Assembly (NCBI GenBank): GCA_035606545.1
Contig: DATNFC010000017.1
Location: 1 to 43,104 of the forward strand
Source: Candidatus Methylomirabilota bacterium
GTDB taxonomy: Bacteria; Eisenbacteria; RBG-16-71-46
Direction of reading: 5' to 3'
DNA length: 43,104 nt
In this document: positions 5,151-24,297 of the stretch, one piece after another
Layout of the letters: every line of letters starts with the position of its first letter
Numbering within the stretch: the stretch's first letter is position 1
Translations under genes and position numbers: made by a program
Notes under the pieces: model-generated
What the model saw: only the letters and a program-made list of their open reading frames with translations
Told to the model about the DNA's origin: nothing
Databases searched by the model: none

Positions 5151-5208
5151 GTTCGCGGTCGACCCGGAGAGCCGCGGTGGCGCACCGGATCAGGGAGAGA
5201 GCGGGCGC

Positions 5209-7224: not shown

Positions 7225-7265
7225 CGGTCGGGGCAGCAGGCCGCCAAGGAAGGTAAGGCAACGCC

Positions 7266-8836: not shown

Positions 8837-9753
8837 AGGTCCTGCTGACCGGGGCTGGCGGTTTCGTCGGCTCGCACGTGGCCACCGAACTGCTCGCGCG
8901 CGGGCACGAGGTGCGCGCCGTGCGTCGCCCGGGCAAGCCGAGCGAGGCGTTCGCGGGAATCGCCCATCGGGTCGAGTCGGTGGAGCTCGACCTGTTCGCC
9001 GCCGACGCCGCGCGCCTGGACGCGTTGGCGCGCGGCGGGGACCTGTGCATTCACCTCGCCTGGTACGCCGTTCCGGGCAAGTACCTCGCGGCCCCGGAGA
9101 ACGTGGAGTGCGTGTCGGGCAGCCTGCGCCTGTTGCGGGCCCTGGCCCGGAACGGCTGCCGACGCGCCGTGTTCGTGGGCTCGTGCTTCGAGTACGAGTT
9201 CCTCCCCGAGCCGCTCCGCGAGGACGGTCCCGTGCAGCCGCAGAGCCTGTACGCCGCGTCCAAGCTCGCGACCCGGCTCATGGGCGAGCCGCTGGCGCGG
9301 ATCGATGGCATCGAGTTCGCGTGGGCGCGCTTGTTCTACCTGTTCGGTCCGTTCGAAGACCGGCGCCGGCTGGTGCCCTACGTCATCGACACGCTGCTGC
9401 GTGGTGAGCCGGTGGATGTCACCCAGGGCACCCAGGTGCGGGACTTCCTCCACGTGGCGGATGTCGCATCGGCACTCGTGGCGATCGCACTCAGCAAGGC
9501 GACGGGCGTGGTGAACGTGGGCTCGGGGCAACCGGTCACGGTCCGGCAGGTGGTGAGCACACTGGACTCGTTGATCGGTCGACCCGGGCTCGTGCGCTTC
9601 GGGGCCCGGCCCGACAACCCGACGGACCCGCCCCATGTCTCCGCGGACAATCGCAAGCTGGTCGAGGCCACCGGATGGTCGCCCGCCCACGATCTGGAGA
9701 GCGGGCTCAAGCACACGATCGAATGGTCCCGGGCGCATCTCGTGGCGCGATGA
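8833..9753 (+). CDS. NAD(P)-dependent epimerase/reductase (extended SDR), probable NDP-4-keto-sugar reductase
   Basis: VKVLLTGAGGFVGSHVATELLARGHEV (GxxGxxG) and YAASK (YxxxK). GTG 8833 overlaps the rfbC TGA (GTGA). Confidence 0.85.
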   Translation: MKVLLTGAGGFVGSHVATELLARGHEVRAVRRPGKPSEAFAGIAHRVESVELDLFAADAARLDALARGGDLCIHLAWYAVPGKYLAAPENVECVSGSLRLLRALARNGCRRAVFVGSCFEYEFLPEPLREDGPVQPQSLYAASKLATRLMGEPLARIDGIEFAWARLFYLFGPFEDRRRLVPYVIDTLLRGEPVDVTQGTQVRDFLHVADVASALVAIALSKATGVVNVGSGQPVTVRQVVSTLDSLIGRPGLVRFGARPDNPTDPPHVSADNRKLVEATGWSPAHDLESGLKHTIEWSRAHLVAR

Positions 9754-10823
9754 CGCCGGCCCAGCCACCGCGCATCGGTTACTCGACACTCCGCGACGAC
9801 CCCACCGGCCCGGGCGATCGGAGGCGCTTCTGCCGCTATGCCGCCCAGCGTGGGCTGGCATGGGAGATCGCGCGTCCCGACCGGGCGTACGACATCGTGG
9901 TCTCGAGCGTGGGCGGCGACCTGAGCTCGTGGCGCCGGCTGCCGCGGGCGACCAAGTTCGTGTTCGACATGGTGGATTCCTACCTGACGGCGCCCGGGGC
10001 CGACCCGCGCGCCCCGTTGCGCGGGCTGTTCAAGTTCCTCACCGGGCACACGCGTCATCTCCATCTCGACTTCCGCCAGCTCATCATCGACTGCCTGCGA
10101 CGCGCCGACAGCGTGATCTGCAGCACCGAGGAGCAGCGCGAGAGCATCCGTCCCTACTGCGCGAACGTCCACGAGATCCTGGACATCCAGAGCGAAGCCG
10201 TGCGGCACGTGAAGCGGGACTACGCGCGGGGCGAGCGATTCCAACTCGTGTGGGAGGGTCTGGCGCTCAACCTGCACACGTTCCGCGCCATCGCGGCGCC
10301 GCTCCGCTCCCTCGCCGCGCGGCACCCGATCGCGTTGCACCTGGTCACCGACCTCGAATGCCCGCGCGGCTCCACGTACCTGTGGAAGCGGCCCACGCGC
10401 GACGTCGTGCGCGAAGTGATCGGCATGGATCATGTCTTCGTGCACGAGTGGAGCGTCGACCGGGTGTCTGCCGTTGCCATGGAATGCGACCTGGCCGTGA
10501 TCCCGATCCCGCTCGATGTCCCGTTCCTTCGCGGCAAGCCGGAGAACAAGCTGGTGTTGTTCTGGCGCATGGGCATGCCGGTCGTGACCTCGGCCACGCC
10601 CGCCTACGAGCGCGCGATGCGCGCCGCCGGGCTGAGCCTGACGTGCCGGACCGAGGACGAGTGGCTCACGACGCTCGAACGCCTCATGCTCGACGAGAAC
10701 CCGAGACGCGAGGCTGGACGCCTGGGAGCGGCGCACGCGGAGGCCGCGTACAGCGAGTCGGGCCTGCTCGCCAAGTGGGACGACGTGTTCCGGTCGGTGG
10801 GGCTGAGCCCACGAGCTCAGTAG
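9750..10823 (+). CDS. Hypothetical protein, divergent GT-B-fold glycosyltransferase-like
   Basis: ATG 9750 overlaps the upstream TGA (ATGA). The C-terminal half, CDLAVIPIPLDVPFLRGKPENKLVLFWRMGMPVVTSATPAYERAM, resembles a GT-B donor-binding domain. I see no clear E-x7-E. Confidence 0.7.
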   Translation: MTPAQPPRIGYSTLRDDPTGPGDRRRFCRYAAQRGLAWEIARPDRAYDIVVSSVGGDLSSWRRLPRATKFVFDMVDSYLTAPGADPRAPLRGLFKFLTGHTRHLHLDFRQLIIDCLRRADSVICSTEEQRESIRPYCANVHEILDIQSEAVRHVKRDYARGERFQLVWEGLALNLHTFRAIAAPLRSLAARHPIALHLVTDLECPRGSTYLWKRPTRDVVREVIGMDHVFVHEWSVDRVSAVAMECDLAVIPIPLDVPFLRGKPENKLVLFWRMGMPVVTSATPAYERAMRAAGLSLTCRTEDEWLTTLERLMLDENPRREAGRLGAAHAEAAYSESGLLAKWDDVFRSVGLSPRAQ

Positions 10824-12331
10824 CGGGGATCGAGCGCGGCTCTCAAGGCGCGACGCTCTTCCGCGAGGCCCGGCCCGGCCGCCCAGATCGCGAACGGCAC
10901 CAGCACGGCGGCAAGGATCGCGAGTCGGATCGGAAGACCCAGCGACCGGATCGCGAACGCCCCGCCCAGAACCGCGAGCGTTCCGAGCGCGGGCAGGGCC
11001 GCCCGCCGGATCACCGCACGGCCATCCGGCATCGACGGGGCAGCCATGATCATGAGCACGATCAGGTCCACGAGTGCCCTGACCGACCAGACGAGCGCCG
11101 CTCCCGCCGTCCCCGCCCAACGGACTCCCCACCACAGGCCGAGCAGGAACAACGGCATCTCGGCGATGAGCAGCACGCCCACCTTGCGCGGCTGGCCGAC
11201 GGCCTGGATGAGGGCTGATGGAATGAACGAGAGCCCGGTGAAGAACGCGCCGACGGCCAGGAGCTGCATCACGGTCTGCCCGTTCTGCCGGAACGCGGCT
11301 CCGAGCCAGATACCCAGGATGTCCCCGCCGACCACGATCAGGATCATCGTCAGCGGAAACAGCGCGCAGTAGACCTGGCTGAGCCCACGCCGGAACAGCA
11401 TCTGCAGGCGGTCCGGATGCGCCCGCGTGCTCGTCGCGAACGCGGGAAAGAGGACGCTCACCAATGTCCCCGGCAGGATCCACAGCTTGGTGGCGATCTC
11501 CTGCGGCGGCACGTAGAACGCGATCGCACCGACCGATGTCAACGCGCCGATCAGCAGGCGGTCGAGCGAGACGAACAGCGGCATGATGAGGTTGATCACC
11601 GCGAGCCATCCGCCGCTCCTGAGCAGCGAAGCCGCCACCGCGGAGACCCAGCGGAACCGCCCGCGCAGCTCGGGCATCACCGCGACGCAGACCAGCAGGT
11701 GGGCGAACGTGCCCACGAATCGGACCGCCACCAGCGTGCTCACGATCGCCGCAAGCCCGTGCGTGAACGGCAGCACCGCCATGGGCAGGACGAACGACAG
11801 CAGGCTCATGGGGATGCGGATGAGGTTCAGCGCCTTGAAGCGCTGGTAGGCCGCGAGCACGCCGCCCAAGCCGGCGGTCACCAGGACCGCCGGCAGCGAC
11901 ATGGCCAGCAGGTAGAACGCCCCGCGCGTGTCCTGCTCCAGCGCCACCGGAACGTGAAGCGCGTGCTGGACCACCCACGGCGTGGCGATCCCGAGGACCA
12001 GCGCTCCGAGCACGCCCAGCGCGAGCAGCATGATGAGCGCCGTTCCCACGAGGCCCGGCAGCTCCGCCGTGTCCCCGCCGCCGAGACCCTCCGCGACCAC
12101 GCGCGTGAGCGCACGACCGAGGCCGAAGTCGAACAGGGTGAAGTAGCCGATCACGGTCCACGCGAGTGTCAGCACGCCGAATGCCTCGGTGCCGAGCGCG
12201 TGCAGGAGGATGGGCACCGCCACCGCGGCCGCGACCATGGGGATCGCCTGACCGAGGAGGCTCCAGAGCGTGTTGCGCGCGAGCAGCCCCCGGCCCGTCA
12301 GTGCGCCGGCTGAGGGCCTCTGCGGGCTCAT
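10817..12331 (-). CDS. wzx: Polysaccharide flippase, MOP superfamily (Wzx-like)
   Basis: About 12-14 hydrophobic segments. The N-terminus LLARNTLWSLLGQAIPMVAAAVAVPILLHALGTEAFGVLTLAWTVIGYF is typical of Wzx/polysaccharide biosynthesis proteins. ATG 12331 overlaps the stop of the upstream GT (ATGA). The 3' end overlaps the convergent gene by 7 nt. Confidence 0.85.
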   Translation of the reverse strand: MSPQRPSAGALTGRGLLARNTLWSLLGQAIPMVAAAVAVPILLHALGTEAFGVLTLAWTVIGYFTLFDFGLGRALTRVVAEGLGGGDTAELPGLVGTALIMLLALGVLGALVLGIATPWVVQHALHVPVALEQDTRGAFYLLAMSLPAVLVTAGLGGVLAAYQRFKALNLIRIPMSLLSFVLPMAVLPFTHGLAAIVSTLVAVRFVGTFAHLLVCVAVMPELRGRFRWVSAVAASLLRSGGWLAVINLIMPLFVSLDRLLIGALTSVGAIAFYVPPQEIATKLWILPGTLVSVLFPAFATSTRAHPDRLQMLFRRGLSQVYCALFPLTMILIVVGGDILGIWLGAAFRQNGQTVMQLLAVGAFFTGLSFIPSALIQAVGQPRKVGVLLIAEMPLFLLGLWWGVRWAGTAGAALVWSVRALVDLIVLMIMAAPSMPDGRAVIRRAALPALGTLAVLGGAFAIRSLGLPIRLAILAAVLVPFAIWAAGPGLAEERRALRAALDPRY

Positions 12332-13578
12332 CGAAGATCCCGTCTCGCCGCGGTGCCACGCACGGTCGGACTCACGGGCGCGCGCGCATGCACGAGCTCC
12401 CCGTAGACGTCGTCCATGCTCGCGACGATCGAGGGCCACGAGTACCGCGAACGGACCGACTCCACGCCCTGGGCACCCAGCACGCTTCTTCGCGCAGGGT
12501 CGCGAAGCAACGCCTCGAGACGCGCGGCCAGGCCGTCCGGGTCTGCAGGCACGAGCAACACCGGGTCGATGGGCCGGAGGATCTCGGGGCTGGCGCCGCT
12601 GTCGGTCGCGAGCACGGGCGTGCCGGAGGCGAGGCCCTCGATCGTCGAGATCCCGAAGCCCTCCATCGAGCGCGACGGGACCGCGATCAGGTCCGCGGCA
12701 CGGAGCAGCTCGGGCAGATCGGCATCCGGAACACGACCGAGGAAGAGCACGCGCTCATCGAGACCCAGCTCGCTGCGGAGCGCCTCGAGCGCCTGCCGCT
12801 CCGGTCCTGCGCCGCCGATGGCCACGACGAACGGGAGGCCGCGGGCGGCCAGCTTCGCGGCGGCGCGGATCAGGATGTCGATCCCCATCCGCCGCACCAG
12901 CCGGCGCACGCTGACGATCAGGAACCCCTCCTGCGGGACGCTGAGGTGCTGCCGCGCGGCGATGCGGTCCCCCGGCGCGAACCGCGTCAAGTCCAGGCCC
13001 GGCGGGATGATGCGCACCTTCCCGCGCGCGCCCGGCTCGATCGCCTCGACCTGACCGAGGACGAACTGCGTGTGCACGACGACGCGCTCGGCGCGCTGCA
13101 GGCACTGGCGATCCAGCAGCCCGATCGCCCCCGACTTGAGCCGGTCGCCGAGCCCGAGGGGTCGATGCTCTCCCGCGGGAGCGCCGTCCAGTCGTTCGGC
13201 CTCGAACTCGAGGCGATACGCGGCGTGAAAGCTCAGCACCCGCCGCGCGGGAAACGATCCGTTCAAGGCCGGGACGGCGCTCGCGATCTGGTGGGCGTGG
13301 ATGATGTCGAACCGCTCCCCGGCCAGCTCGCGCAGCGCCCGCGCGACGCCCTCGCGAACGGCGAGGAAGAATCGCAGCCCGCGCGCCTTCGCCAGCGGGT
13401 AGCGGCGGATCCGGAAGCCATCGAGCCGCTCCTCGACGGGGAATCCGCCGGTGTCCCCGGCCAGCACCGTCACCTCGTGGCCCGATGCGGCCTGCGCGCG
13501 AGCCATCCCGTGGATGAAGCGTTCCGCGCCCCCGAACACGTCCGGGAACACGAACGTCGCCACGTGGAGGATCCTCAC
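12328..13578 (-). CDS. Glycosyltransferase family 4
   Basis: VRILHVATFVFPDVFGGAERFIHGMA. C-terminal block ADLIAVPSRSMEGFGISTIEGLASGTPVLATDSGASPEIL. GTG 13578 overlaps the upstream TGA (GTGA). The 115-codon upstream extension in the ORF track is Arg/Ala-rich and lies inside the preceding gene. Confidence 0.88.
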   Translation of the reverse strand: MRILHVATFVFPDVFGGAERFIHGMARAQAASGHEVTVLAGDTGGFPVEERLDGFRIRRYPLAKARGLRFFLAVREGVARALRELAGERFDIIHAHQIASAVPALNGSFPARRVLSFHAAYRLEFEAERLDGAPAGEHRPLGLGDRLKSGAIGLLDRQCLQRAERVVVHTQFVLGQVEAIEPGARGKVRIIPPGLDLTRFAPGDRIAARQHLSVPQEGFLIVSVRRLVRRMGIDILIRAAAKLAARGLPFVVAIGGAGPERQALEALRSELGLDERVLFLGRVPDADLPELLRAADLIAVPSRSMEGFGISTIEGLASGTPVLATDSGASPEILRPIDPVLLVPADPDGLAARLEALLRDPARRSVLGAQGVESVRSRYSWPSIVASMDDVYGELVHARAPVSPTVRGTAARRDLR

Positions 13579-16500
13579 GGCACCTGCCCGAGCTTGACCA
13601 GCGCGGCCGCGAGCTCCTGCGCGCCGGGCGACGCCGCGAGCCCGCGGCGGAGCGCGGCGACGGTGGCGTCCTTGTCGCCGGCCTGGAGGTGCACCTGCGC
13701 CTCGAACAGGTAGGCGCGCGCGTTGCCCGGCACGAGCTTCTGCGCGGCCGTGAACGCCGCGAGCGCGCCCGCGGGATCCTGCTTCGCGAGCGCCAGCATG
13801 CCCGCCATCATCTCGGCGTCGCTCCGCACCTGCACGTCGCTCGACCGGCGTGCGCGCTCGATCGCCGCGGCCGAGCCCGGGAGGTCGCCGTCCACGCGCC
13901 GCCGCTCGGCGAGCACCACCCACGCCCGCGCGTTCTCCGGGTCGAACTCCACCGCGCGCTCGAGCGCGGCGCGCGCCTCGGCCTTCAGGCCCTGTCCCAG
14001 CAGTCGAGTGGCCTCGTCGAACGCGGCGCGGCTCCTCGCCCGCGCGGCGCTCGTGGCGATGAGCGCTTCGAGCGCGGCAGCCTCTCCCGGCACGGCGTCG
14101 CGCGCCGCCAGCACGGTGCGCGCAGCATGCGCCGAGTCGTCCTGCTCGAGCAGCCAGCGCGCACGCGCGCCGTACCAGTCGGCGGTCGGCCAGGCCGCGA
14201 ACAACGGTCCCGGTGGCTCTGACGCCACGAACGGCAGCCGCCCGACCACGCCCGGGTGGCCGCTCAACTGCGCGCGGCCCACGTCCACGAGATCCTGCGG
14301 CGCGCGGTACTCCACCACCGGCCGGTCATCGCGGTTGAGCGGCGCGTTGCCGGCGATCGCCTGGAGCGAATCGAGCGGTGCCGCCCAGTACGCCGCGATC
14401 ATCGCCGGGTCCGGGATGCGCGCGCGGTCCAGCGCCTCGCGCGCCGCGGGGGTCCGGAGCCGCGGGAGGTCGAGCGTGCGGCCGGGCGGCGCCGCGACGA
14501 GCAGCAGGTCCACGTTACGCCACACGCAGAACACCTGGCCCTGCGGGAACACGTCGAGGAACGAGTGCAGCAGCGTCGCGAACGTCTCCGGCGACAGCTC
14601 GTAGAGCTGGAGCCACTGGCAGAACACGCCATCGGGCTCGAGCCGCGCGCGCACACGGCGGTAGAAGTCCACGGTGAAGAGGTTGTTGACGCCCGCGATC
14701 CAGGGGTTCGAAGGCTCGGAGACGATGAGCCCGTAGCGGCCCGTTCCGTACAGCAGATGGGTGCGCGCATCGCCCAGGATGAGTCGCGTGCGTGGGTCAT
14801 CCAAAGGGTCCTCCCCTTTCGCGTGGAACCAGCGCGAGGCGGCGATGACGCCGGGCTCGAGCTCGACGACGTCGGTACTGCCCGCGCCGCCCGCGAGCAC
14901 GCTCGCCGTGGTGACGCCCGAGCCGTGGCCGATCACCAGCGCGCGCGCGCCGGAGTCGGCGAGCACCGCGGGCAGGAGCCCGAGCAGCACCTGCGTCTCC
15001 ATGTCGAGCGTGCTCGCGTCCACCTTGCCGCCGACGCGCAGCCACAGCTCGCGGTTCTCGGCGTCGGTGCAGAGGATGACCGAGGCGTTGATGCCCTCGT
15101 GGTAGTAGAGCACGCGATCATTGGAAGTGGCGCGGCGCACGGCGTCCGCCGCGCCGCCGGCGAACGCGTTCACCTTCACCGCCTGCGACGGTCGGTAGAC
15201 GCCGGACGTCATCAGCGTGGGCTCCCACGCCGGCGCGATCACCACGAACAGCACGGTCGCGAACGCCGCGAGCCCGCCGATCATGAGCGGCATGCCCTTC
15301 AACTCGCGGCGGCGCCACGCCGTCAGCAGCGCGATCACGCCGATCACGCCCGCGAGCGCCACGCCGGTCACGTGCGTGCCCTGGATGCCGAGCGAGGGCA
15401 CGAGCACGAAGCCCGCGACCAGCGAGCCCGCGATCGTGCCGGCGGTGTTGACGGCGTAGGCCAGGCCCGCGGCGTGGCCGCCGTCGCGGCTCTGGAGCAG
15501 GCGCGTCGCGACCGGGAAGATCGCGCCCAGCAGCACGCACGGCGCGCCGATCATCAGCGCCACGGTGCCCACCTCGGCGAGCAACAGTCCGCGCCAGTCG
15601 GCGCCGGCGCTCGTGCCCATGTCGAGCATGCGCTGCGGTAGCCCCGGGAACGCCTGGATCGCGAGCGCCGCGGTGGCGGCGAGCACGAGCTGGAGCGCGC
15701 CGAAGCCGGCGAGCGTGCCGACGCGCGCGATGCGCGCGCCCACGAGTGCCGCACCCACCGCGATCCCGAGCAGGTAGATGCCGAGCACCGCGGAGAACGA
15801 ATAGACCGACGAGCCGAACACGAGACCGAAGAGCCGCACCCACGCCATCTGGAACGCGAGCGCGCCGAATCCCGAGAGCGCGAACAATGCGGCCATGATG
15901 CGGCGCGTGGCGGGGTCGAGCGGCGCGGGTGCGGGCGTCGCGGCGGGCGTTTCCGCCGCGGCGACGCCTGCGGCCGGCGAGCCGCGTCCCGCGCTCCACG
16001 CCACCGCCGCCACGCCGGCGTTGAGCGCAGCGGCGACGAACGTGGTGGCGGCGAGCCCTACACCCGGCAATAGTACGAAGCCCGCGGCGAGCGAGCCCGC
16101 GACCGCGCCCAACGTGTTGAGCGCGTAGAGCCGGGCCAGCCCCGCCCCGACCCGGTCGCGCTCGACGTGTGCCACCAGCACCGGCAGCGTGGCGCCCATC
16201 AGCGCCGCGGGCGGCAGCAGCGCCAGCATCACCAGCACGAGCCGCGCGCTCGCGAACGCCACGCCCTCGCCGCCGAAGCTGCGGTACAGCTGCCCGATCA
16301 GCGGATCGCTCGCGCGTAGCGCCGGCAGGATCAGGAGCCCGATGAGCCCCACGCCCAGCTCGAGCGCCGCGTAGGTACGAGCCCCATTCCCCCGCCGTGC
16401 GAGCGGCACGCCGAGCAGCCGCGCGCCGAGTGCGAGGCCCAGCAGGAACGACGCCACCACCGCGGCCACGGCGTGAAGCGAGCCACCGAGCAGGTAGGCC

Positions 16501-16607
16501 AGCTCCTTGGACCACACGATCTCGTAGAGCAGGCCCGCGGCGCCCGAGAAGAAGAAGCACAACGTCGCCCAGGCCGGCAGCGTCGACGCGCGTGGGGATG
16601 TTGCCAT
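13575..16607 (-). CDS. Fused polytopic membrane domain / spermidine-synthase-like (class I MTase fold) domain / C-terminal TPR repeats
   Basis: The N-terminal ~480 aa has many TM helices (AWATLCFFFSGAAGLLYEIVWSKEL...). The central region, VLYYHEGINASV...ALVIGHGSGVTTASVL...VVELEPGV...LIVSEPSNPW...FCQWLQLYE, matches the fused MFS/spermidine synthase family pattern. The C-terminus has TPR-like repeats (AEARAALERAVEFDPENARAWVVLAE, AQKLVPGNARAYLFEAQVHLQAGD). ATG 16607 shares 1 nt with the upstream TGA. Confidence 0.85.
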   Translation of the reverse strand: MATSPRASTLPAWATLCFFFSGAAGLLYEIVWSKELAYLLGGSLHAVAAVVASFLLGLALGARLLGVPLARRGNGARTYAALELGVGLIGLLILPALRASDPLIGQLYRSFGGEGVAFASARLVLVMLALLPPAALMGATLPVLVAHVERDRVGAGLARLYALNTLGAVAGSLAAGFVLLPGVGLAATTFVAAALNAGVAAVAWSAGRGSPAAGVAAAETPAATPAPAPLDPATRRIMAALFALSGFGALAFQMAWVRLFGLVFGSSVYSFSAVLGIYLLGIAVGAALVGARIARVGTLAGFGALQLVLAATAALAIQAFPGLPQRMLDMGTSAGADWRGLLLAEVGTVALMIGAPCVLLGAIFPVATRLLQSRDGGHAAGLAYAVNTAGTIAGSLVAGFVLVPSLGIQGTHVTGVALAGVIGVIALLTAWRRRELKGMPLMIGGLAAFATVLFVVIAPAWEPTLMTSGVYRPSQAVKVNAFAGGAADAVRRATSNDRVLYYHEGINASVILCTDAENRELWLRVGGKVDASTLDMETQVLLGLLPAVLADSGARALVIGHGSGVTTASVLAGGAGSTDVVELEPGVIAASRWFHAKGEDPLDDPRTRLILGDARTHLLYGTGRYGLIVSEPSNPWIAGVNNLFTVDFYRRVRARLEPDGVFCQWLQLYELSPETFATLLHSFLDVFPQGQVFCVWRNVDLLLVAAPPGRTLDLPRLRTPAAREALDRARIPDPAMIAAYWAAPLDSLQAIAGNAPLNRDDRPVVEYRAPQDLVDVGRAQLSGHPGVVGRLPFVASEPPGPLFAAWPTADWYGARARWLLEQDDSAHAARTVLAARDAVPGEAAALEALIATSAARARSRAAFDEATRLLGQGLKAEARAALERAVEFDPENARAWVVLAERRRVDGDLPGSAAAIERARRSSDVQVRSDAEMMAGMLALAKQDPAGALAAFTAAQKLVPGNARAYLFEAQVHLQAGDKDATVAALRRGLAASPGAQELAAALVKLGQVP

Positions 16608-17302
16608 CACACCTTCCGGAACACCGCCGAGCCCCAGGTGTCGGGCAGCTCGATCACGCGCTCGGTCCTGCCCGCGAGGAACTCGGTGAGCGCCCGCCGG
16701 CAGGCGCCATTCGACTCGGGGTTGTTGAAGTCGTGGACGAAGCAATAACCGCCGCTCGCGAGCCGCGGGTAGAAGAATTCCAAGCCCGCGAGGGTGGGTG
16801 CAAAGACGTCGAGGTCGAGCAGCACGAACGCGAACGTGCGCTCCTCGAGCCCCGCGGTCGTGGCCGGGAAATAGCCGGCGTGGATGATCGCGTTCGCGCC
16901 GGCGCCCACCGCCTGCTTCACCGTCGCCTCGCTCGTGGCCTGGAAGCGCGCATCGTTCGCATTCTCCGGCTCGCGGTCGTGCGCGGCGAAGCCCGTGAAC
17001 GTGTCGAACAGGTGGAGCGTGCGCTCGGGCGCGCAGGCGGCGAGGAACCGACTCGTGGCCCCGCGGTAGACGCCCACCTCGGCGAAATCGCCCTGGATCC
17101 CGTCCTGCTGCAGCGTGCGCACGGCGAGCGCCAGGCTCGCGTAGCGTGCCGGGTCACCGGAATCCCTTACCAACTTCGCGATCTCGCCGCCGTAGGTCGG
17201 GAAGCGCAGCGTCTCGCGATCGGGGAACAGTCGCCGCCGCACGTGACGCCCGGCCACGAGCAGGCCCATGCGGTCGAGCCACAGCGCCACGCGCGAGCTC
17301 AC
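16607..17302 (-). CDS. TylF/MycF-family (macrocin-type) SAM-dependent O-methyltransferase
   Basis: GDFAEVGVYRGATSRFL (SAM motif I) and VLLDLDVFAPTLAGLEFFYPRLASGGYCFVHDFN match the TylF-family metal/SAM-binding blocks. Confidence 0.85.
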   Translation of the reverse strand: MSSRVALWLDRMGLLVAGRHVRRRLFPDRETLRFPTYGGEIAKLVRDSGDPARYASLALAVRTLQQDGIQGDFAEVGVYRGATSRFLAACAPERTLHLFDTFTGFAAHDREPENANDARFQATSEATVKQAVGAGANAIIHAGYFPATTAGLEERTFAFVLLDLDVFAPTLAGLEFFYPRLASGGYCFVHDFNNPESNGACRRALTEFLAGRTERVIELPDTWGSAVFRKV

Positions 17303-17441
17303 GCCGGCCTCGTCGTGCGGGCCGCGAGGGCCTGTTCGCCCGGGGCGGGGAGTGGGTGTCGCGGCCGGCGGCCGGTGAATGGAGGGCTGGGCACGGGGCG
17401 GCCACGATAGAGGCGCGTGGTCGATTCCGCTACCGCGCGCG

Positions 17442-20400
17442 CTAGGCCCCGTCGCTGTCGCCGCTCGGCACGAGGTCGAAGTCGCCGGCGAGCACGCGCT
17501 CGAACCGGCCCGTGCGCCAGCCGCGTACGGCGTCGCGCACGAGCGGCGACGGCGTGCCGCGGTAGCGACGCACGATCGTGGGCGCGGGCGACGGCGCGCC
17601 CGCGAGCGCTTCCGCCGCCTGACGGGTCAGTCCGGCCTCGCCATCCGGGGACCCGCCGGAGGCGGGTGCGGGCACGAGCGGCTGCGGCAGCACGCGCACG
17701 CGCACGCTCGCGCGCTTGATGCCGCCGTCGGCGTTGCTCCCCCACTCGAGCACGTGCAATCCGTCTTCTTGCATGAGCACGATGTAGGACGAGAACCCAG
17801 AAATCGCAAGCCATACCGTGTCGCCGGAATGGCGCATGCTGGGTTTCAAGACGGCGATGCGCATGCCGCGCTGGCGCGCCCAGGCCTCGTACATGGCGGC
17901 GATGCGGCGCGAGAACTCCTGCTCGCCGCTGCGGTCGGGGCCGTCCGGGCCGGCCTGCACGTAGAGGAACGCATCGCGCGGGCCCGTGGTCATGGCCTCG
18001 TGGGCGGCGGCCTCGAGCAGCAGCATCTGCTGGGCAAGCCGCGCCACCATGTTGCGCGGCCACACCTGGCGCTGCGCGGCGCCGTCGCCGTCGAGCCGGG
18101 CGAGCAGCGAGCGGGCCGAGCGGGCGCCGGCCTCGATGCGGTCCATGTACTCGGCACGGCCCAGCACCTCGAAGCGGTCGCTCCGCTGCCAGAAGCCGTC
18201 GGTCGCGGGCATGGCGAGCCAGCGCGCCTTCGCCTCGCTCCACTCCGGCCCGTCGACACGCGCGCCGAAGCGCTGGAGGCTCGCGCGCAGCTCCTGCATC
18301 TCGGCCGCGGTGCCGTGCGCGTCCCAGGCGATCGCGCGCAGGTCCGCGCCGGGTCGCGCCGCGATGCCGGCCGCGGTGAGCACGCTCGCGGCACTCGGCG
18401 GCGCGTCGGGGTCCACGAACTCCACCGCCAGCGCGTCGCCGTCGGTGCGCACGAACAGGAACTGGTCGCCCTCGGGAACGCGGCGCTCGACGATCGTGCG
18501 TGCGAGCGGCGCGAGCAGGTAGCGCTCGAGGCTGCGCTTCAACGGCCGCGCGCCCAGGTCGGTGGTGAAGCCGCGGTCGAGCAGGAAGTCGATGGCTCCC
18601 TCTTCGATCTCCACCGCCCACTCGCGCCGGCGCAGGCCGCGGCGCGCGGAGGCGTCCGCGATCTCCTTCTGCAGGATCTTGCGCATGACGTCGCGCGTGA
18701 ACGGCCGGAACACCACGACGCGATCGAGGCGGTTCCGCAGCTCGGGCGCGAACGTGCGGCTCACCGAGCGCTCCACCATGGCGGCGCTGAAGCCGGCTTC
18801 CGAGCCTTCGGCGAAGCCCAGCCGCTCGCCCGAGGCGAGCATCGCGCCCAGGTTCGAGGTCAGGATGATGATGCTGTTGCGGAAATCCGCCGTCTCGCCC
18901 GCGGCGTCGGTCAGCCGGCCGTCGTCGAACACCGACAGGAACAGGTTCCAGATCCGCGGGTGCGCCTTCTCGAACTCGTCGAGCAGCACCACGGAAAACG
19001 GCTGGCGGCGGATCGCCGCCGCGAGCGAGCCCGCACCGGTGCCGCCCAGGTTCGCCGCGCCGGTCACGCGCTCCAACCCCAGCCCGTCGGCCAGCTCGCT
19101 CATGTCCAGCCGCAGCAGGCGATCTTCGGAGCCGAAGAGCCAGGTCGCGAGCGCTTTGGCGAGCTCGGTCTTGCCGGTTCCCGTGGGGCCCGCGAACAGG
19201 AACACGCCGTAGGGGCGCGCCGGGTCGGTGACGCCGGCCTTCAGCAGTGCCACGCGCTCGACGAGCGCGCTCACCGCGTCCGGCTGGCCGATGACGCGCT
19301 CCTCGAGCTTCGCGCGCAGCGCCTCGAGATCGAGCGCGCGCTTCTCGTCCAGCAGCTCCTCGGGAAGCCCGGTGAGGGACGACACCGCCGTCAACAGATC
19401 CGCGTGCTGCAGCTTCACCTCCGAGGCCTCGGGGCCCGCGGGCGCGACCGCGGTGACGGCGAGGTCGAGCATGCGCAGCACGCCGCCCGGCGCGCGCATG
19501 CTCGAGAGGTACTGGCGCGAGAGCTGCGCGGCCTCGTCCTGGAGCCACGGCTCGACGCCGACGCGGCGCTCGCGCGCGGTGCGTTCCGCCCACTGCTTCA
19601 AGAGCGCAGCCACGTCGGCGTCGCGCCACGGCGCCACGCGCACGATCTCGAACAGCCGGCCGATCTCGGGCCGCTCCGCGAGCAGGCGGTCGAGCGTGCC
19701 CGGCCGGGTCTCGCCCAGCGCGAGGATCTCACCCGACTCGAACGCCGGCATCAGCTGCTCGAGCGCGCCCGTGGGCGACTGCATCGCGCGGCCGCTCCAC
19801 AGCAGCTGGTGGAAGTCGGGCACGAGCCACAGCGACCGGGGCTCGGCGGCGAGCTGCTTGCGCACCTCGAGCAGGCGCCGCTCGAGCATGCCGACGAACG
19901 ACATGCCGGCGTTGAGCTGCGACGCCCCGGCCTCGAACACGCGCCAGCCGTCGCGCGAGAGGTGCGCGGCGACGCTGCGCGCGAGCGCGGTCTTGCCGAC
20001 GCCGGACTCGCCCACCACGAGCACCGGTCGCGGCGGCTGCGACGTGAGCGCCTTCATCACCTTGTCGAAGCACTCGGCGAGCGCTCCGGTCGTGAACACG
20101 GGCGGCTCGGGCATCTTGCCGCGCTCGTGCCACTGGCCGATGCCCTTCAGGTCGCCGAGGCTCTCGAGATCGGGCGGGGTCATGCCGGTGCGCGGGGGCA
20201 CACGCGGGCCCGACTGTTGCGCCGCCTTGAGGGTGCTGACGAACGGCTCGACGAGCGCGGGGTCCTGCTCCTGGAGCACGGCCTCGAGCAGCTCCTCGAT
20301 CCGCCCGGGCGACGGCAGCTCCACCCCCTCGAGCGTCAGCGGGAAGCGCGCCGCGCGCCGGCGCAGGAAGCGCTCCAACGAGACCGCGTGGCCGGTGCTC

Positions 20401-20915
20401 GCCCACTGCCGGTCGAGGCGCACGAGCAGACGGCCCGCGAGCGTGGGGTCGTCCGCGTGCCAGGCCTCGAGCACGCGCAGCACGCCGTCGCCGTTCCACG
20501 GGTGGAAGCGGTTGAGCTGCGCCCAGAGCTGCGGCTCGAGCGCCTCGTCACGCGGCCGCACGCACAGCGCGTCCAGCGCCGCGATCGCCGGGTAGAGCCG
20601 CTCGCCCTGCACCAGTCCCAGCAGCAGCTCGCCGGGCACGTTGGCATCGGTGAGCAGCTTCACCGCCTCGCGATAGCCGGGCAGCGCCACCAGGTGCTCG
20701 GGGCGCGTGACCTCCGGCGAGACCTGCGTGATCTCGAACAGCAGCATGTAGAGCTGCCGGAGCAGCGGGTCTGTCATGCCGCGGTCGGGGCCCTCGGCCT
20801 GCGGCTGGCGGACCGGCAGCGCCGGACCGGGCTGGCCCTGGTTGCGCCGGCGGTTGTACCACGCGAGCGCCAGGATCGCGGCGAGCGCGACGAGAATGCC
20901 GAGGCTGCTGTTCAT
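17442..20915 (-). CDS. Membrane-anchored Clp/Hsp100-type double AAA+ ATPase with a C-terminal GGQ-less release-factor-2-like module
   Basis: ATG 20915. The TM helix is SLGILVALAAILALAWY. D1 Walker A is GESGVGKT. D2 has GPTGTGKTELAKALA, VVLLDEFEKAHP, IIILTSNLG and GARPLKRSLERYL. The C-terminal blocks FWQRSDRFEVLGRAE, FLYVQAGPDG, AAMYEAWARQRGMRIAVL, DGLHVLEW and IVRRY...LVRD...RTGRFERVLAGDFD parallel RF2. The 3474-nt frame is uninterrupted. Confidence 0.9.
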   Translation of the reverse strand: MNSSLGILVALAAILALAWYNRRRNQGQPGPALPVRQPQAEGPDRGMTDPLLRQLYMLLFEITQVSPEVTRPEHLVALPGYREAVKLLTDANVPGELLLGLVQGERLYPAIAALDALCVRPRDEALEPQLWAQLNRFHPWNGDGVLRVLEAWHADDPTLAGRLLVRLDRQWASTGHAVSLERFLRRRAARFPLTLEGVELPSPGRIEELLEAVLQEQDPALVEPFVSTLKAAQQSGPRVPPRTGMTPPDLESLGDLKGIGQWHERGKMPEPPVFTTGALAECFDKVMKALTSQPPRPVLVVGESGVGKTALARSVAAHLSRDGWRVFEAGASQLNAGMSFVGMLERRLLEVRKQLAAEPRSLWLVPDFHQLLWSGRAMQSPTGALEQLMPAFESGEILALGETRPGTLDRLLAERPEIGRLFEIVRVAPWRDADVAALLKQWAERTARERRVGVEPWLQDEAAQLSRQYLSSMRAPGGVLRMLDLAVTAVAPAGPEASEVKLQHADLLTAVSSLTGLPEELLDEKRALDLEALRAKLEERVIGQPDAVSALVERVALLKAGVTDPARPYGVFLFAGPTGTGKTELAKALATWLFGSEDRLLRLDMSELADGLGLERVTGAANLGGTGAGSLAAAIRRQPFSVVLLDEFEKAHPRIWNLFLSVFDDGRLTDAAGETADFRNSIIILTSNLGAMLASGERLGFAEGSEAGFSAAMVERSVSRTFAPELRNRLDRVVVFRPFTRDVMRKILQKEIADASARRGLRRREWAVEIEEGAIDFLLDRGFTTDLGARPLKRSLERYLLAPLARTIVERRVPEGDQFLFVRTDGDALAVEFVDPDAPPSAASVLTAAGIAARPGADLRAIAWDAHGTAAEMQELRASLQRFGARVDGPEWSEAKARWLAMPATDGFWQRSDRFEVLGRAEYMDRIEAGARSARSLLARLDGDGAAQRQVWPRNMVARLAQQMLLLEAAAHEAMTTGPRDAFLYVQAGPDGPDRSGEQEFSRRIAAMYEAWARQRGMRIAVLKPSMRHSGDTVWLAISGFSSYIVLMQEDGLHVLEWGSNADGGIKRASVRVRVLPQPLVPAPASGGSPDGEAGLTRQAAEALAGAPSPAPTIVRRYRGTPSPLVRDAVRGWRTGRFERVLAGDFDLVPSGDSDGA

Positions 20916-20981
20916 GAAAGGCGGCCCGTCCTCGAGGGTCCATACGCTGCCGGGGGCGCAGTGGGAATGGCGAGTGTGTCA

Positions 20982-21018
20982 GAGACGCGGCTGCGGAGCG
21001 AGTGCGGAATTCCGTCTC
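20982..21018 (-). terminator. Candidate stem-loop at the rmd stop codon (possible terminator or insulator before the AAA+ gene)
   Basis: On the minus-strand RNA, GAGACGG pairs with CCGCGUCUC with one bulge (about 7-8 bp) and a loop of about 20 nt containing the palindrome cggaattccg (21005-21014). No U-tract. Confidence 0.2.
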
Positions 21019-21970
21019 AGGCGCTCGCCGCCCGCCACTCGGCCAGGACGTCGCCGAGCGTCGAGGCGAACGGGAGTTGCACGCTCCAGCCCACCTCGGC
21101 CGTGGTGAGCGAGGGATCGCCCACGAGCCACGGTGTGTCGGCGGGACGCAGGCGCGCGGGGTCCACCTCGACGGTGAGCTTCACGCGCGACATTCTCACG
21201 AGCTCCTTTAGCAGGTCGGCGAGCAGCACGCCCTCGCCGCGGCAGAGGTTGTAGACGGCGCCCGCGCGCCCGCGCTCGAGCAGAGCGCAGTAGCCCGCGA
21301 CGATGTCGCGGACGTCACTGAGGTCGCGCGTCACCTCGAGGTTCCCGACGCGCAGCACCGGCTCGGCCTTCCCCGCCTCGATCGCCGCGACCTGCTGGGC
21401 GAACGCAGGCACCACGAAACGCGGCGTCTGCCCGGGCCCGGTGTGGCCGAACGGTCGCGCGCGCACCACGTCGAGCCGGTGCGTGGCTGCGTACTCCGCC
21501 GCGATCTGCTCGGCGGCCGCCTTGCTCACGGCGTACGGGCTCACGGGCGCGAACGCGTGCGTTTCGGCGGCGCGCGTGCCCGGCGCGATCGGGCCATAGA
21601 CCTCGCTCGTGCTCACGACCACGACGCGCGCCGCAGGCGCGTGCGCGCGCACGGCCTCGAGCAGCGTCCACGTGCCGGTGACGTTGGCGCGGAACGTGGC
21701 CTCGGGCGCCTCGAACGACTTGGCGGCGCTGCTCTGGCCCGCGAGGTGGACGACCGCGTCGAGCGGCGCGGCCGCCAGCGCCGCCTCGGCTTGAGCCGGC
21801 AGTGAAAAGTCGGCCTCGTGCCAGTCCGCGAGCGGCGTGGCTTTCGCAGGCGCACCCAGCCCCGCGCCGCGAACGGTCGCGCCCCGCGCGACGAGCGCAC
21901 GCACGAGGTGCGGGCCGACGAAGCCGCCGGCGCCGGTGACGAGCACGCGCGCGGACCTGAGAGCGGTCAC
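21017..21970 (-). CDS. rmd: GDP-4-dehydro-6-deoxy-D-mannose reductase-like SDR (Rmd type)
   Basis: RVLVTGAGGFVGPHL, VSTSEVYG, SPYAVSKAAAE, ARPFGHTGPGQ, VGNLEVTRDLSDVRD, GAVYNLCRG and VDPARLRPAD follow the P. aeruginosa Rmd pattern as I recall it (ARPFNHIGPGQ, DPARMRRAE). GTG 21970 overlaps the upstream TGA (GTGA). Confidence 0.82.
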   Translation of the reverse strand: MTALRSARVLVTGAGGFVGPHLVRALVARGATVRGAGLGAPAKATPLADWHEADFSLPAQAEAALAAAPLDAVVHLAGQSSAAKSFEAPEATFRANVTGTWTLLEAVRAHAPAARVVVVSTSEVYGPIAPGTRAAETHAFAPVSPYAVSKAAAEQIAAEYAATHRLDVVRARPFGHTGPGQTPRFVVPAFAQQVAAIEAGKAEPVLRVGNLEVTRDLSDVRDIVAGYCALLERGRAGAVYNLCRGEGVLLADLLKELVRMSRVKLTVEVDPARLRPADTPWLVGDPSLTTAEVGWSVQLPFASTLGDVLAEWRAASA

Positions 21971-23520
21971 GGCGCCACCCCGCGACGGGCGAGCCGCGTG
22001 AGCTCGCCCCAGGCGACGTGGCGCGTGGCGAGCAGCACCACGAGCGCCACGACGCCCGCGACGCCGCTCGACGCGACCAGCGCGACCCAGGGCGAATGCA
22101 GCGCGCGTTCGACCGACGCGCCAGCGGCGAAACCCGCCGCGATCGCGAGCGCCGGGAACACGAACGGCTCCCACAGCGCGTGCGCTGCCGGCCAGTGCTG
22201 GTCGCGCGTCAACCGCAGCGCGAGCCACAGCGCCCCGACCAGGTTCGCGACCGTGATCGCGGCGAGCGCGCCGGCCAGCCCGAGCCGCGGCACGAGCAGC
22301 ACGCCGAGCCCCGCGTGGAGCGCGAGCGCCAGCGCCGACCACTCGAGCTCGATCGACGTGCGCCCGACGCCGCGCGCGATCGCGCTCGAGACGCCGCCCG
22401 CCACCGCGGCGAACGCCGCGAGCGCGAGCCCGCGCAGCGCCAGCGCTGCGTCCGGCTCAGGATGCCCGAGCCAGGCCGCGAACAGCGATGGCGCCGACCC
22501 GACGAGTGCGGCGGTGACAACGGCGGCGAGGCCGGTCACGAACCGGCCGGCGCGGCGGTGCAGCTCGCGCAGGCGGTCCGCGGCCGCCTGCGCGTGGAGC
22601 GCCGAGGCCTCGGGGATCATCGCCACGAGCAGCAGCTGCGAGAACGTGCTGCACGCGGTCGACACCCGGAGTCCCAGCTCGTACGGCACCACGGACGCCA
22701 GCGACAGCATGCGCACGAGCAGCACCTTCCCGAGCTGCTGGTGCATGACCGCGATCCCGTTGGCCAGCTGGAGCGGCATGCCGAAGCCCATCGCCTCGGG
22801 AAGGCGCGAGCGCGCCTGGCTCACCGTGCCCCAGCGCAGGCCCGGCGCGCCGCGCGCCACGAGCACGAGGCCCAACGCGAGTGCGACGAGCCAGCCCACG
22901 ATCACGGCGAGCAGACAGGCGGCGAACGTTTCGGGCTGGCGGAGCGCCACGAGCAACGCCGCCACCTGCACCAGCGACACCGTCAGCGTGACCACGTTCG
23001 CGAGGTCGAAGCGATCCCAGGCCTGGAGCAGGGCCGCCGTGGTGTTGGTGACGCCCGAGAGCAGGAACACTGGCGCCCCGGCGAGGAACGCGAGGCGGGC
23101 CCATGCGCGGGCGTCACCGTGGATATGCAGGATGTCGAGCACCGGCTCGCGCAGCGCCAGCACCAGCAGCAGCCAGACGATCCCGAGCGCCCCGTAACCC
23201 AGCACCGCGAGCGTCGCGTACTCGCCGGCCTCGTTCCCGGCGCCGCGCGCGCGCGCCGCGGCGCCGTAGCGCAGCGCCACCTGCGCGAAGCCGAGATCCA
23301 GCGACCCCATCCAGCCCGCGAGCGCGTAGAACAGCGACCACACGCCGAAGCCCTCGGGCCCGAGCGCGCGCACGAGCGACGGCGTGAGCAGCAGCCAGGC
23401 GAGGATCGCGACGACGCGGCCGCTCGCCGAGTGGAACGAGTTGCGCGCCAGGCGCACGCCCATCCCACGCGGCGGGGTACCCGCACGCTTGCGTGCGGGT
23501 CCGGCGGCCGATTCGTTCAT
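21967..23520 (-). CDS. Polysaccharide flippase / MOP-superfamily membrane protein (second Wzx-like)
   Basis: Multiple TM segments. LARNSFHSASGRVVAILAWLLLTPSLVRALGPEGFGVWSLFYALAGWMGSLDLGF is typical of polysaccharide biosynthesis (PST) proteins. ATG 23520. Confidence 0.82.
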   Translation of the reverse strand: MNESAAGPARKRAGTPPRGMGVRLARNSFHSASGRVVAILAWLLLTPSLVRALGPEGFGVWSLFYALAGWMGSLDLGFAQVALRYGAAARARGAGNEAGEYATLAVLGYGALGIVWLLLVLALREPVLDILHIHGDARAWARLAFLAGAPVFLLSGVTNTTAALLQAWDRFDLANVVTLTVSLVQVAALLVALRQPETFAACLLAVIVGWLVALALGLVLVARGAPGLRWGTVSQARSRLPEAMGFGMPLQLANGIAVMHQQLGKVLLVRMLSLASVVPYELGLRVSTACSTFSQLLLVAMIPEASALHAQAAADRLRELHRRAGRFVTGLAAVVTAALVGSAPSLFAAWLGHPEPDAALALRGLALAAFAAVAGGVSSAIARGVGRTSIELEWSALALALHAGLGVLLVPRLGLAGALAAITVANLVGALWLALRLTRDQHWPAAHALWEPFVFPALAIAAGFAAGASVERALHSPWVALVASSGVAGVVALVVLLATRHVAWGELTRLARRGVAP

Positions 23521-23526
23521 CCGCCG

Positions 23527-24297
23527 CTAGATGAACCGCCGGCCGCGCGTGCGGAACTCGCGCACTGCGGCCGCGTCGGGATAGGTGAAGTAGCTCGCGC
23601 GCGTCATGTCCATGGGCTCGCGCGGGGCGTCGCCGCGCTCGATGCGCTCCAGGGCCTCGAGCAGCGCGTGCCGGCCCACGTCCACCTTCGAGCGCAGCAC
23701 GAGCCGGTGCACGGTGTCGCGCGGCTCGATCGTGACGCGGCGCTGGAGCAGCACGTCGCCGTGGTCCAGCTGCTCGTCCATCCAGTGCACGGTGACGCCG
23801 GTCTCGGGCTCGCCCTTCGCCAGGACCCAGAACGAGGGGAAGATGCCCTGGTAGCGCGGCAGCAGCGCGCCGTGCAGGTTGATGGCGCCCTTCACCGGCA
23901 CGGCGAGCAACGCGCCCGAGAGCTTCTGCGGGCAGGCGAGCGACACCAGCAGGTCGACGCCGCGCGCACGCAGCGCGGCGATGAACTCGGGCGCGTTCAC
24001 CTTCTCCACGTGCTCGACGGGAACGCGGGCGCGGCGCGCCGCGGATGCGACCGAGTGGCTCGAGCGTAGCGGCAGCACGCGCGAGAGCAGGTCGAGAGCG
24101 CGGTACCACGTCAGGTTCACGACCTGGAACGCGAAGTCGCGCGCGCCCATCATGCGCAGGAAACGCAGCGCGCGGCCGGCCTGCATCTCACCCGGCACGA
24201 TCGCAACGCCCACCACGTCGCGGCGCTGCTCGAGCAGCAGGTCCAGGATCCGCGGGATGTAGAAGGCGTCCTCCTGCGTGAGGACCTGGATGCGCAC
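23527..24297 (-). CDS. Formyltransferase (Fmt/ArnA N-terminal-domain-like)
   Basis: INLHGALLPRYQGIFPSFW (Asn/His of the formyltransferase catalytic site) and GVTVHWMDEQLDHGDVLLQ (catalytic Asp). GTG 24297. Confidence 0.85.
   Translation of the reverse strand: MRIQVLTQEDAFYIPRILDLLLEQRRDVVGVAIVPGEMQAGRALRFLRMMGARDFAFQVVNLTWYRALDLLSRVLPLRSSHSVASAARRARVPVEHVEKVNAPEFIAALRARGVDLLVSLACPQKLSGALLAVPVKGAINLHGALLPRYQGIFPSFWVLAKGEPETGVTVHWMDEQLDHGDVLLQRRVTIEPRDTVHRLVLRSKVDVGRHALLEALERIERGDAPREPMDMTRASYFTYPDAAAVREFRTRGRRFI

Follow-up and report, generated by a model that had tools for sequence, protein, structure and literature searches.

The window analyzed here, 43,104 nucleotides (nt) of contig DATNFC010000017.1 (assembly GCA_035606545.1, a Candidatus Methylomirabilota bacterium that GTDB places among the Eisenbacteria), carries on its minus strand one uninterrupted open reading frame (ORF) of 1157 codons with an ATG start (17442..20915). 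The encoded protein of 1157 amino acids (aa) consists of a membrane anchor, a HEAT-like domain, two AAA+ modules (D1 and D2), a linker, and a C-terminal pseudo-RF2 module that resembles peptide chain release factor 2 (RF2). A reading of the letters alone, referred to here as the original prediction, had described a stand-alone, membrane-anchored Clp/Hsp100 ATPase fused to a release-factor-like module and had proposed that it docks on stalled or membrane-engaged ribosomes. The ORF is present exactly as claimed, separated by 101 nt from an upstream epimerase-like ORF (end, 21017) and by 139 nt from a downstream TylF-type methyltransferase ORF (start, 17302), and the parts named from the letters, including the membrane helix with its NRRRNQ sequence, the GESGVGKT motif, and the D2 motifs, were verified by translation. 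The window has a G+C content of ~73% and holds long ORFs in many frames, so the reality of the fusion ORF rests on homology. We consider it highly probable that the protein represents an undescribed and widespread family that joins a membrane anchor, a HEAT-like domain, a ClpA/ClpC-type double AAA+ core, and a tethered RF2 module without the GGQ domain.

Distribution of the fusion

A protein search returned about 68 near-full-length metagenomic homologs (1116 to 1195 aa, 38 to 91% identity), many of which have a precomputed match to the release factor domain PCRF. In their sources, these homologs are named only "AAA family ATPase" or "ClpC," and the closest relatives are labeled Candidatus Eisenbacteria. 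Among 1.84 billion representatives searched with a profile, 414 clusters (50% identity) reached an E value of ≤1e-30, mostly of 1050 to 1290 aa. Using a DNA pattern back-translated from RRYRxxPxPLVRD, we found matches in the genomes of at least 120 species, cultured isolates included, and nearly all of the matched ORFs keep the order N-domain, D1, D2, and RF-like module. The groups among the matches listed are Eisenbacteria, Planctomycetota, Gemmatimonadota, Burkholderiales, Acidobacteriota (Pyrinomonadaceae, Blastocatellia, and Thermoanaerobaculia), Actinomycetota (Gaiellaceae and Solirubrobacteraceae), Alphaproteobacteria (Hyphomicrobium and Labrys okinawensis), and Gammaproteobacteria (Lysobacter brunescens, Lysobacter spp., and Luteimonas salinisoli). 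With its occurrence in at least 120 species of several phyla, the fusion of a Clp/Hsp100 ATPase to an RF2-derived module is genuine and conserved. By D2 identity, the nearest relative belongs to the same phylum or class in 33 of 42 cases, which points to mainly vertical descent; judged from these identities, mostly within-phylum relatedness would suit a housekeeping or stress role.

Some sequences at the edge of the family differ in architecture or labeling. Two Acidobacteriota proteins, P0072 (Pyrinomonadaceae) and P0084 (Sulfidibacter corallicola), were considered as members and excluded (hhalign probability, 4.8%). They are Clp-like proteins of ~1100 aa with a different N terminus and a C-terminal extension of roughly 330 aa, in which there are faint traces of the RF-like tail (AEFLDRIED and PPVVRIYAEP...LDLRT), and they may form a more diverged sister family. 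Six proteins (P0122, P0123, P0145, P0156, P0208, and P0236) consist of the RF-like module alone (about 280 to 294 aa) and start with V or M exactly at the first strand of the module; they may be true pseudo-RF2 proteins that stand alone, or pieces of the fusion left by gene calling. In a metagenome-assembled genome (MAG) of an uncultured actinomycete, a 1067-aa ORF (L019, 1168-4368, minus strand) has an RF-like module at aa 749 to 997, upstream of which neither an AAA+ module nor a Pfam domain was detected; this ORF either has another architecture or stems from a long-read assembly full of errors. At two further loci (L115, 2633-6029, and L050, 2-2311), the N-domain, D1, D2, and RF modules are split over several frames; these copies are pseudogenes or products of indel errors in long-read MAGs. 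Three copies from MAGs named "uncultured Heliomicrobium sp." (L036, L056, and L061) are 95 to 99% identical in D2 to copies from Acidobacteriota MAGs, a similarity that suggests a taxonomic mislabel or misbinning.

Homology of the C-terminal module to RF2

All features described below lie on the minus strand. A flexible linker that follows D2 (aa 836 to 855, 18351..18410; predicted local distance difference test score [pLDDT] of <50 in both AlphaFold2 models) leads into a helical bundle like RF2 domain 1 (aa 856 to 976, 17988..18350), assigned by Foldseek and by alignment of the family profile to residues 10 to 120 of RF2 in the Protein Data Bank (PDB). GFW, R914, D925-R926, and R940 are conserved in this bundle. 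Next comes an alpha/beta domain like RF2 domain 2 (aa 977 to 1079, 17679..17987), recognized by Pfam PCRF and by phmmer and profile alignments to RF2 residues 123 to 214. At the position of RF2 domain 3, which carries the GGQ motif, there is a linker of 34 aa (17577..17678) with no RF-1 match, and beyond it lie C-terminal strands like those of domain 4 (IVRRYRGTPSPLVRDAVRGWRTGRFERVLAGDFDL, 17472..17576), the most conserved stretch of the module.

Pfam, which the original prediction had named as a check on the tail, matched PCRF at residues 926 to 1056 with 24.7 bits for the whole protein and 27.9 bits for the isolated tail (gathering cutoff, 24 bits). The best NCBIfam match of the tail was prfB (TIGR00020, 26 bits versus a cutoff of 370). 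In a single-sequence search of PDB sequences, the tail found RF2 at an E value of 2.8e-4, and a profile built from 17 family tails found RF2 at 6.8e-15 over residues 10 to 206 (domains 1 and 2) and RF1 at ~1e-8. The AlphaFold2 model of the tail (pLDDT, 84.4; predicted template modeling score, 0.83) had RF2 or RF1 as each of its 50 top Foldseek matches in the PDB, the best being free Escherichia coli RF2 (1gqe, E = 4e-12), so the structural comparison with RF2 proposed at the outset also came out positive. The tail is homologous to RF2, beyond chance, and is closer to RF2 than to RF1.

The domain 4 correspondence was drawn in a different way. The last 35 residues were aligned with RF2 residues 338 to 369 (IRSYVLDDSRIKDLRTG...VLDGSLD) by a sub-threshold HMMER stretch and by eye only, with RRYR..PSPLVRD..GWRTG..VL.GDFDL of the module lined up, again below threshold, with IRSY...KDLRTG...VLDG.LD of RF2; the Foldseek alignment spans the whole chain. 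The conservation of these strands across the family is firm. The description of the tail as following RF2 block by block stands for domains 1 and 2, probably holds for domain 4, and fails for domain 3, which is absent.

Motif statistics were taken over species representatives (76 for D1, 93 for D2, and 105 for the RF-like module). The module scores 200 to 440 bits in the 105 species, and RRYR..PSPLVRD..GWRTG, GLHVLE, and MY..W are nearly invariant in it; many of the conserved residues are arginines. The tail is conserved as strongly as D1, and this pattern of conservation indicates that the RF-like module is under selection.

Loss of release and decoding elements

Pfam found no RF-1 domain (PF00472, the GGQ domain) in the protein. 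RF2 domain 3 has about 100 residues; the linker that replaces it measures 10 to 42 aa over the 105 species, most often 25 to 28 aa, and falls between the sheet of the domain 2-like part (…VRVRVLPQP) and the domain 4-like strands. GGQ occurs at the domain 3 position in 0 of 105 species, the only GGQ seen being a chance occurrence near the start of one module. A short linker likewise stands in for the RF2 switch loop. RF2 reads stop codons with its SPF loop, the tip of helix alpha-5 (AGxGGxE), and His215, and the matching columns vary in sequence and length across the family. With the GGQ domain excised and the stop-codon motifs decayed, the module cannot release peptides or read codons, and an active release factor is ruled out.

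One homolog bears on how this state arose. P0071 (locus L127, 1531-4356), a protein of 941 aa without the membrane helix and HEAT-like N terminus, aligns to RF2 residues 17 to 299, domain 3 included. Its GGQ position reads FGS within a shortened loop, and its TLQNDRSPTEN matches TQCQNDRSQHKN of RF2. From this alignment, P0071 looks like an evolutionary intermediate, and its domain 3 remnant indicates that the family descends from a fusion with complete RF2, in which catalysis was lost later.

The AAA+ core

AlphaFold2 modeled the full-length protein with confidence (mean pLDDT, 84.2) apart from three low-confidence segments (the linker past the membrane helix, residues 240 to 254, and residues 836 to 855), and the best Foldseek matches of this model are ClpC, ClpC1, ClpA, and ClpB. 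The NCBIfam ClpA model aligns in one unbroken piece (residues 284 to 815 to model positions 195 to 726), whereas the ClpB models align in two pieces only, which indicates a ClpA/ClpC-like D1-D2 layout without a ClpB-length M-domain, as had been read from the D1-D2 junction. The scores fall far below the equivalog cutoffs (ClpA, 312 versus 993 bits; ClpB, 310 versus 1232; TssH, 259 versus 885), and no equivalog cutoff is reached for ClpA, ClpB, ClpV, ClpK, or ClpG.

D1 spans aa 286 to 540 (19296..20060), as delimited by the NCBIfam ClpA alignment and motif statistics; Pfam recognizes its P-loop region at about 290 to 390. The Gly and Lys of its Walker A motif, GESGVGKT (19989..20012), are kept in 69 to 73 of the 76 species, and its pore loop, AGMSFVG (19890..19910; family consensus, AGQx[YFW][IV]G), has an aromatic residue in 73 of 76. 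The D1 Walker B motif is degenerate (LWLVPDF, 19812..19832), with Phe at the position of the catalytic Glu. This Glu is absent in all 76 species, where F (58), L (8), I (6), M (2), or V (2) takes its place, and the Walker B Asp is found in only 31. D1 is thus predicted to be an ATP-binding pseudo-ATPase that binds nucleotide without hydrolyzing it.

D2 spans aa 541 to 835 (18411..19295), as delimited by Pfam and motif conservation, with Pfam AAA_2 at 567 to 732 (E = 1.9e-42) and ClpB_D2-small at 740 to 818. Its Walker A motif is GPTGTGKT (19167..19190), identified by translation and alignment. Both the D and the E of its Walker B motif, VLLDEFEK (18966..18989), are invariant in the 93 species, and LLDEFEK, sensor-1 TSN, the Arg finger NRxD, and sensor-2 GARPLKR are invariant as well. 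D2 is accordingly predicted from its motifs to be catalytically intact and to be the sole active ATPase of the protein. The region of its pore loop 1, GAANLGGTGAGS (19026..19061), stands where ClpA, ClpB, and ClpC have their GYVG loop, and its NLGG aligns with the GYVG of Thermus thermophilus ClpB and of an actinobacterial ClpC. Over the 93 species, the length of this region varies, Gly, Ser, and acidic residues abound in it, and no aromatic residue is conserved, the GYVG tyrosine included. In these motifs, the aromatic grip appears to be kept in a nonhydrolyzing D1 and hydrolysis in a D2 without the canonical grip. An ordinary threading unfoldase, as the Clp/Hsp100 assignment might suggest, is therefore doubtful, given the missing Walker B Glu in D1 (76/76) and the missing pore-loop tyrosine in D2.

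D2 also has an LGF tripeptide (aa 699 to 701, 18813..18821) that BLASTP aligns to the ClpP-docking VGF/LGF loop of ClpC; the match, to the VGF of an actinobacterial ClpC, is one at the level of a motif. The Gly and Phe of this x-G-F tripeptide are invariant in 93 of 93 species, and the low pLDDT of the loop in the AlphaFold2 model is consistent with a flexible loop. Loops of the LGF type are an accepted marker of ClpP partners (PMC10149685).

N-terminal anchor and HEAT-like domain

A hydrophobic helix of 17 residues at aa 4 to 20 (SLGILVALAAILALAWY, 20856..20906; AlphaFold2 helix, 2 to 24) is followed by NRRRNQ. By the positive-inside rule, the basic residues past the helix indicate an N-out/C-in topology with the bulk of the protein in the cytoplasm, and the sequence implies a single-pass anchor that would hold a mostly cytoplasmic protein at the membrane. 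A hydrophobic helix with basic residues is present in about 35 to 38 of the 49 members that have the N-domain, in agreement with the membrane anchoring first proposed.

The N-domain (aa 46 to 240, 20196..20780), which is all helical in the confident AlphaFold2 model, occupies the position of Clp_N in ClpA/ClpC. Pfam found no Clp_N (PF02861) in the 1157-aa protein, and the earlier remark that this region is unlike the Clp_N repeat is borne out; the region is instead HEAT-like. The family profile of the N-domain gives weak matches to designed HEAT-like alpha-Rep proteins (E = 2e-4) and to the HEAT repeats of AP-1/AP-2 beta, and a member from a Planctomycetota MAG (L005, 296-4114, minus strand) has Pfam HEAT_2 in its N-domain at 47 bits. 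The same planctomycete protein has a stronger PCRF match (46 bits) and an insertion of ~40 aa within its RF-like module.

Genomic context

The fusion gene lies within a polysaccharide/O-antigen-like biosynthesis cluster (window positions 13575-24297, minus strand) that is syntenic with positions 4679-17315 of locus L002. The cluster encodes a formyltransferase, a Wzx-type flippase, an NAD-dependent epimerase, a TylF-type methyltransferase, and a 1000-aa spermidine-synthase-like membrane protein that carries TPR repeats. This arrangement is common only to the window and the 91%-identical relative; five other annotated contexts are unlike that of the window and unlike each other. No partner gene is conserved across phyla, either in the six annotated contexts or in an all-against-all clustering of flanking ORFs from 120 loci, and the gene consistently stands alone, as had been surmised from its intergenic gaps. 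The search for conserved neighbors that the original prediction had suggested yielded lineage-specific synteny only, with an M48-like peptidase ORF in Pyrinomonadaceae and a KatG-like ORF in Lysobacteraceae, both named by eye from sequence.

A consensus scan found no sigma-70-like promoter or intrinsic terminator around the gene, a result that is uninformative at 73% GC. Scans of the whole window (1-43104) gave no tRNA or tmRNA gene, and no Rfam family reached its gathering score.

Possible functions

In the reading that we prefer, at a probability of about 0.35, the dead RF2 module serves to dock the membrane-tethered motor on ribosomes in a codon-independent way. In its favor are the homology of the tail to RF2 and its derivation from a complete RF2, the selection on the module, the flexible tether, the anchor seen in most members, the active D2 with its invariant G-F loop, and the conservation of the fusion in at least 120 species. 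It also builds on two precedents, the placement of RF2 at the A site and the L11 stalk with domain 3 not engaged and the existence of A-site binders that lack GGQ. With domain 3 undocked, domains 2 and 4 of RF2 fill the A site and domain 1 contacts the L11 stalk (PMC5378476). Codon reading is dispensable when ArfA recruits RF2, and SPF mutations do not block the ArfA-dependent action of RF2 (PMC5378476). Dom34/Pelota and Balon, which have the aeRF1 fold and lack GGQ, bind the A site of stalled or idle ribosomes and work with NTPases (PMC6514570, PMC10901736), and their A-site binding is independent of mRNA (Balon, PMC10901736; Dom34, PMC6514570).

By analogy, the pseudo-RF2 module would occupy the ribosomal A site and the L11-stalk region, as RF2 domains 1, 2, and 4 do, without codon reading and without peptide release; A-site binding of this kind would make it a docking or sensing device. 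The module would bring the membrane-tethered hexamer to paused or vacant ribosomes beside the membrane, and ATP hydrolysis in D2 would then remodel the complex. Either a nascent or membrane-inserted chain might be drawn through the D1 collar to docked ClpP, or the ribosome might be dislodged, in a logic akin to that of Pelota-ABCE1 or Vms1-Cdc48 of eukaryotes. Ribosome docking and hand-off of the nascent chain, which the original prediction had put forward, are plausible by this analogy; we infer ribosome binding, ClpP docking, the substrates, and the outcome alike, whereas the architecture, the homology, the motif states, the conservation, and the distribution were observed. The more specific proposal, that a membrane-tethered, ClpP-compatible hexamer with a dead RF2 as a codon-independent A-site sensor forms an unrecognized ribosome-associated quality-control machine in bacteria of several phyla, is slightly less probable than the docking reading. 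At the membrane, such a machine would seek out ribosomes that are stalled or idle, and it would remodel, strip, or degrade them or their nascent chains.

Several points weigh against ribosome docking. None of the results gives a direct sign of ribosome binding. Every element with which RF2 contacts stop codons is lost, along with the switch-loop/domain 3 region, and the conserved residues that are retained could be only the core of the fold. The conserved neighbors in the contexts and loci examined include no gene for ribosome rescue, ClpP, Sec, or tmRNA. A D1 without hydrolysis and a D2 without a pore aromatic make the motor ill-suited to processive threading, which weakens the step of extraction to ClpP, and the ring face of ClpP docking bears six bulky C-terminal modules. 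Finally, actinobacterial members have no N-domain, so membrane tethering is not universal.

The main alternative, almost as probable as docking, is that the RF2 fold has been exapted off the ribosome as an adaptor or substrate-binding, autoregulatory, or oligomerization domain. The protein would then serve membrane-anchored Clp-type quality control in the manner of FtsH or Msp1, with clients chosen via the HEAT domain and the D1 collar, perhaps with ClpP. In favor of this reading, nothing is left of the decoding motifs or the catalytic domain, no translation gene is among the conserved neighbors, and the anchor, together with the HEAT domain and the invariant G-F loop, would suit an adaptor of a membrane protease. 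The surface also appears changed, since the module is far less acidic than E. coli RF2 (net charge of the domain 1-like part, about -3 versus -19). However, domains 1, 2, and probably 4 are kept together in an RF2-like arrangement that is highly conserved across phyla, which exceeds the needs of a generic scaffold, and intermediates with a dead domain 3 suggest that catalysis was lost gradually while binding was retained. No example was found of a bacterial release factor fold away from the ribosome, an observation that is absence of evidence only. A third possibility, which we regard as improbable, is that the protein is a hibernation or parking tether. In this case, the dead RF2 would block the A site of idle ribosomes, much as Balon does, and would hold them at the membrane until D2 hydrolysis frees them on the return of energy, with no proteolysis. 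Some known hibernation factors are codon-independent A-site binders without GGQ (PMC10901736), the RF-like module is flexibly tethered, and a motor that does not look built for threading is more readily seen as a release switch than as an unfoldase. Yet a tether of this kind leaves the invariant ClpP-type G-F loop and the conserved aromatic pore loop of D1 unexplained, has no link to stress or hibernation operons, and would be costly as a hexameric ATPase of 1150-aa subunits.

A role as an antiphage or conflict effector, in which an RF-like A-site blocker with an AAA+ switch would shut off translation upon infection, is very improbable. RF-like domains do recur in conflict systems (PMC6514570), and D2 resembles the ClpB-like ATPases DolB and PDC-M37B in PADLOC, but this likeness is one of generic D2 ATPases only, with the tail and the N-domain unmatched. 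The family is moreover encoded by a single, partnerless gene that is syntenic within lineages and has its relatives mostly in the same phylum, and its neighborhoods are housekeeping or metabolic rather than defense islands. As for an artifact, whether an assembly chimera, a frameshift hidden where the AAA+ and RF parts meet, or an ordinary ClpC that matches PCRF by chance, the whole-protein PCRF score is barely above the cutoff (24.7 versus 24 bits), but the same unbroken architecture recurs in at least 120 independent genomes and in the about 68 near-full-length metagenomic homologs, the profile and fold searches are highly significant, and the tail is as conserved as D1. The intact architecture rules out a chimera or frameshift, and the probability of an artifact as a whole is negligible.

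The family is a Clp/Hsp100 variant with a substantial chance of marking a new ribosome-associated system. Bacteria have several known routes for dealing with ribosomes in trouble, namely tmRNA, ArfA/ArfB, RqcH, HflX, and MutS2. If the dead RF2 module binds ribosomes, it would add a new bacterial route for stalled, membrane-engaged, or idle ribosomes, and it would be the first case known to us of a bacterial release factor fold that has lost catalysis and is coupled directly to an AAA+ motor; if it does not, a release factor fold exapted for another job would be unusual in itself. The apparent division of labor, with the grip in a dead D1 and hydrolysis in a gripless D2, departs from the standard Hsp100 threading model. 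The family is large, spans several phyla, and includes cultured isolates (Lysobacter brunescens, Lysobacter spp., Luteimonas salinisoli, and Labrys okinawensis), in which these possibilities are testable.

Comparison with known systems

The original prediction knew of no described fusion of a Clp ATPase to a release factor, and we likewise found none. Pfam, NCBIfam, and PADLOC hold no model that covers the Clp/RF2 fusion architecture; in PADLOC, the only matches were those of the generic D2 core to DolB and PDC-M37B. In the full-text literature, where coverage is thin for subscription journals, we found no paper on a Clp/AAA+-RF fusion, and the release factor survey of Burroughs and Aravind, which tracks the GGQ domain that is absent here, has no Clp/AAA+ fusion of a bacterial release factor. 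ClpI is a bioinformatically defined third class of double-ring Clp unfoldases from Actinomycetota (PMC10149685). Like the present family, it is a noncanonical, ClpB/ClpC-like family recognized from sequence, and LGF served there to mark partners of ClpP; unlike the present family, ClpI has a ClpC-length M-domain and intact motifs in both rings, with no described C-terminal extension, RF module, or membrane anchor. With so different an architecture, ClpI is ruled out as a prior description of the fusion.

The family shares with ClpA/ClpC the tandem AAA+ modules without a ClpB-length M-domain, the AAA_2 and ClpB_D2-small domains, the intact Walker, sensor, and Arg-finger motifs of D2, and an x-G-F loop where those proteins have the loop that docks ClpP. 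It differs from them in having a membrane helix and HEAT-like domain in place of Clp_N, in lacking the Walker B Glu of D1 and the GYVG tyrosine of D2, and in its RF2-like C-terminal extension of 320 aa. With RF2 (prfB), the tail shares homologous sequence and fold in domains 1 and 2 and probably in domain 4; unlike RF2, it is fused to an ATPase, lacks the GGQ domain 3, and does not conserve SPF, AGxGGxE, or His215. As in FtsH and Msp1/ATAD1, an N-terminal anchor puts the entry face of the AAA+ ring beside the membrane. Those proteins, however, have a single AAA+ ring of the classical clade and no RF-like module, FtsH with a fused protease, whereas the family described here belongs to the Clp/Hsp100 clade.

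The likeness to Dom34/Pelota with ABCE1, to Vms1 with Cdc48, and to Balon is one of logic only, an analogy. Pelota, Vms1, and Balon have the aeRF1 fold, which is unrelated to that of bacterial release factors, their partners are separate proteins, and none is membrane anchored. Their binding to ribosomes has been demonstrated, whereas that of the present family is a proposal. Were the quality-control proposal true, the family would be a fused bacterial counterpart of Pelota-ABCE1 or Vms1-Cdc48.

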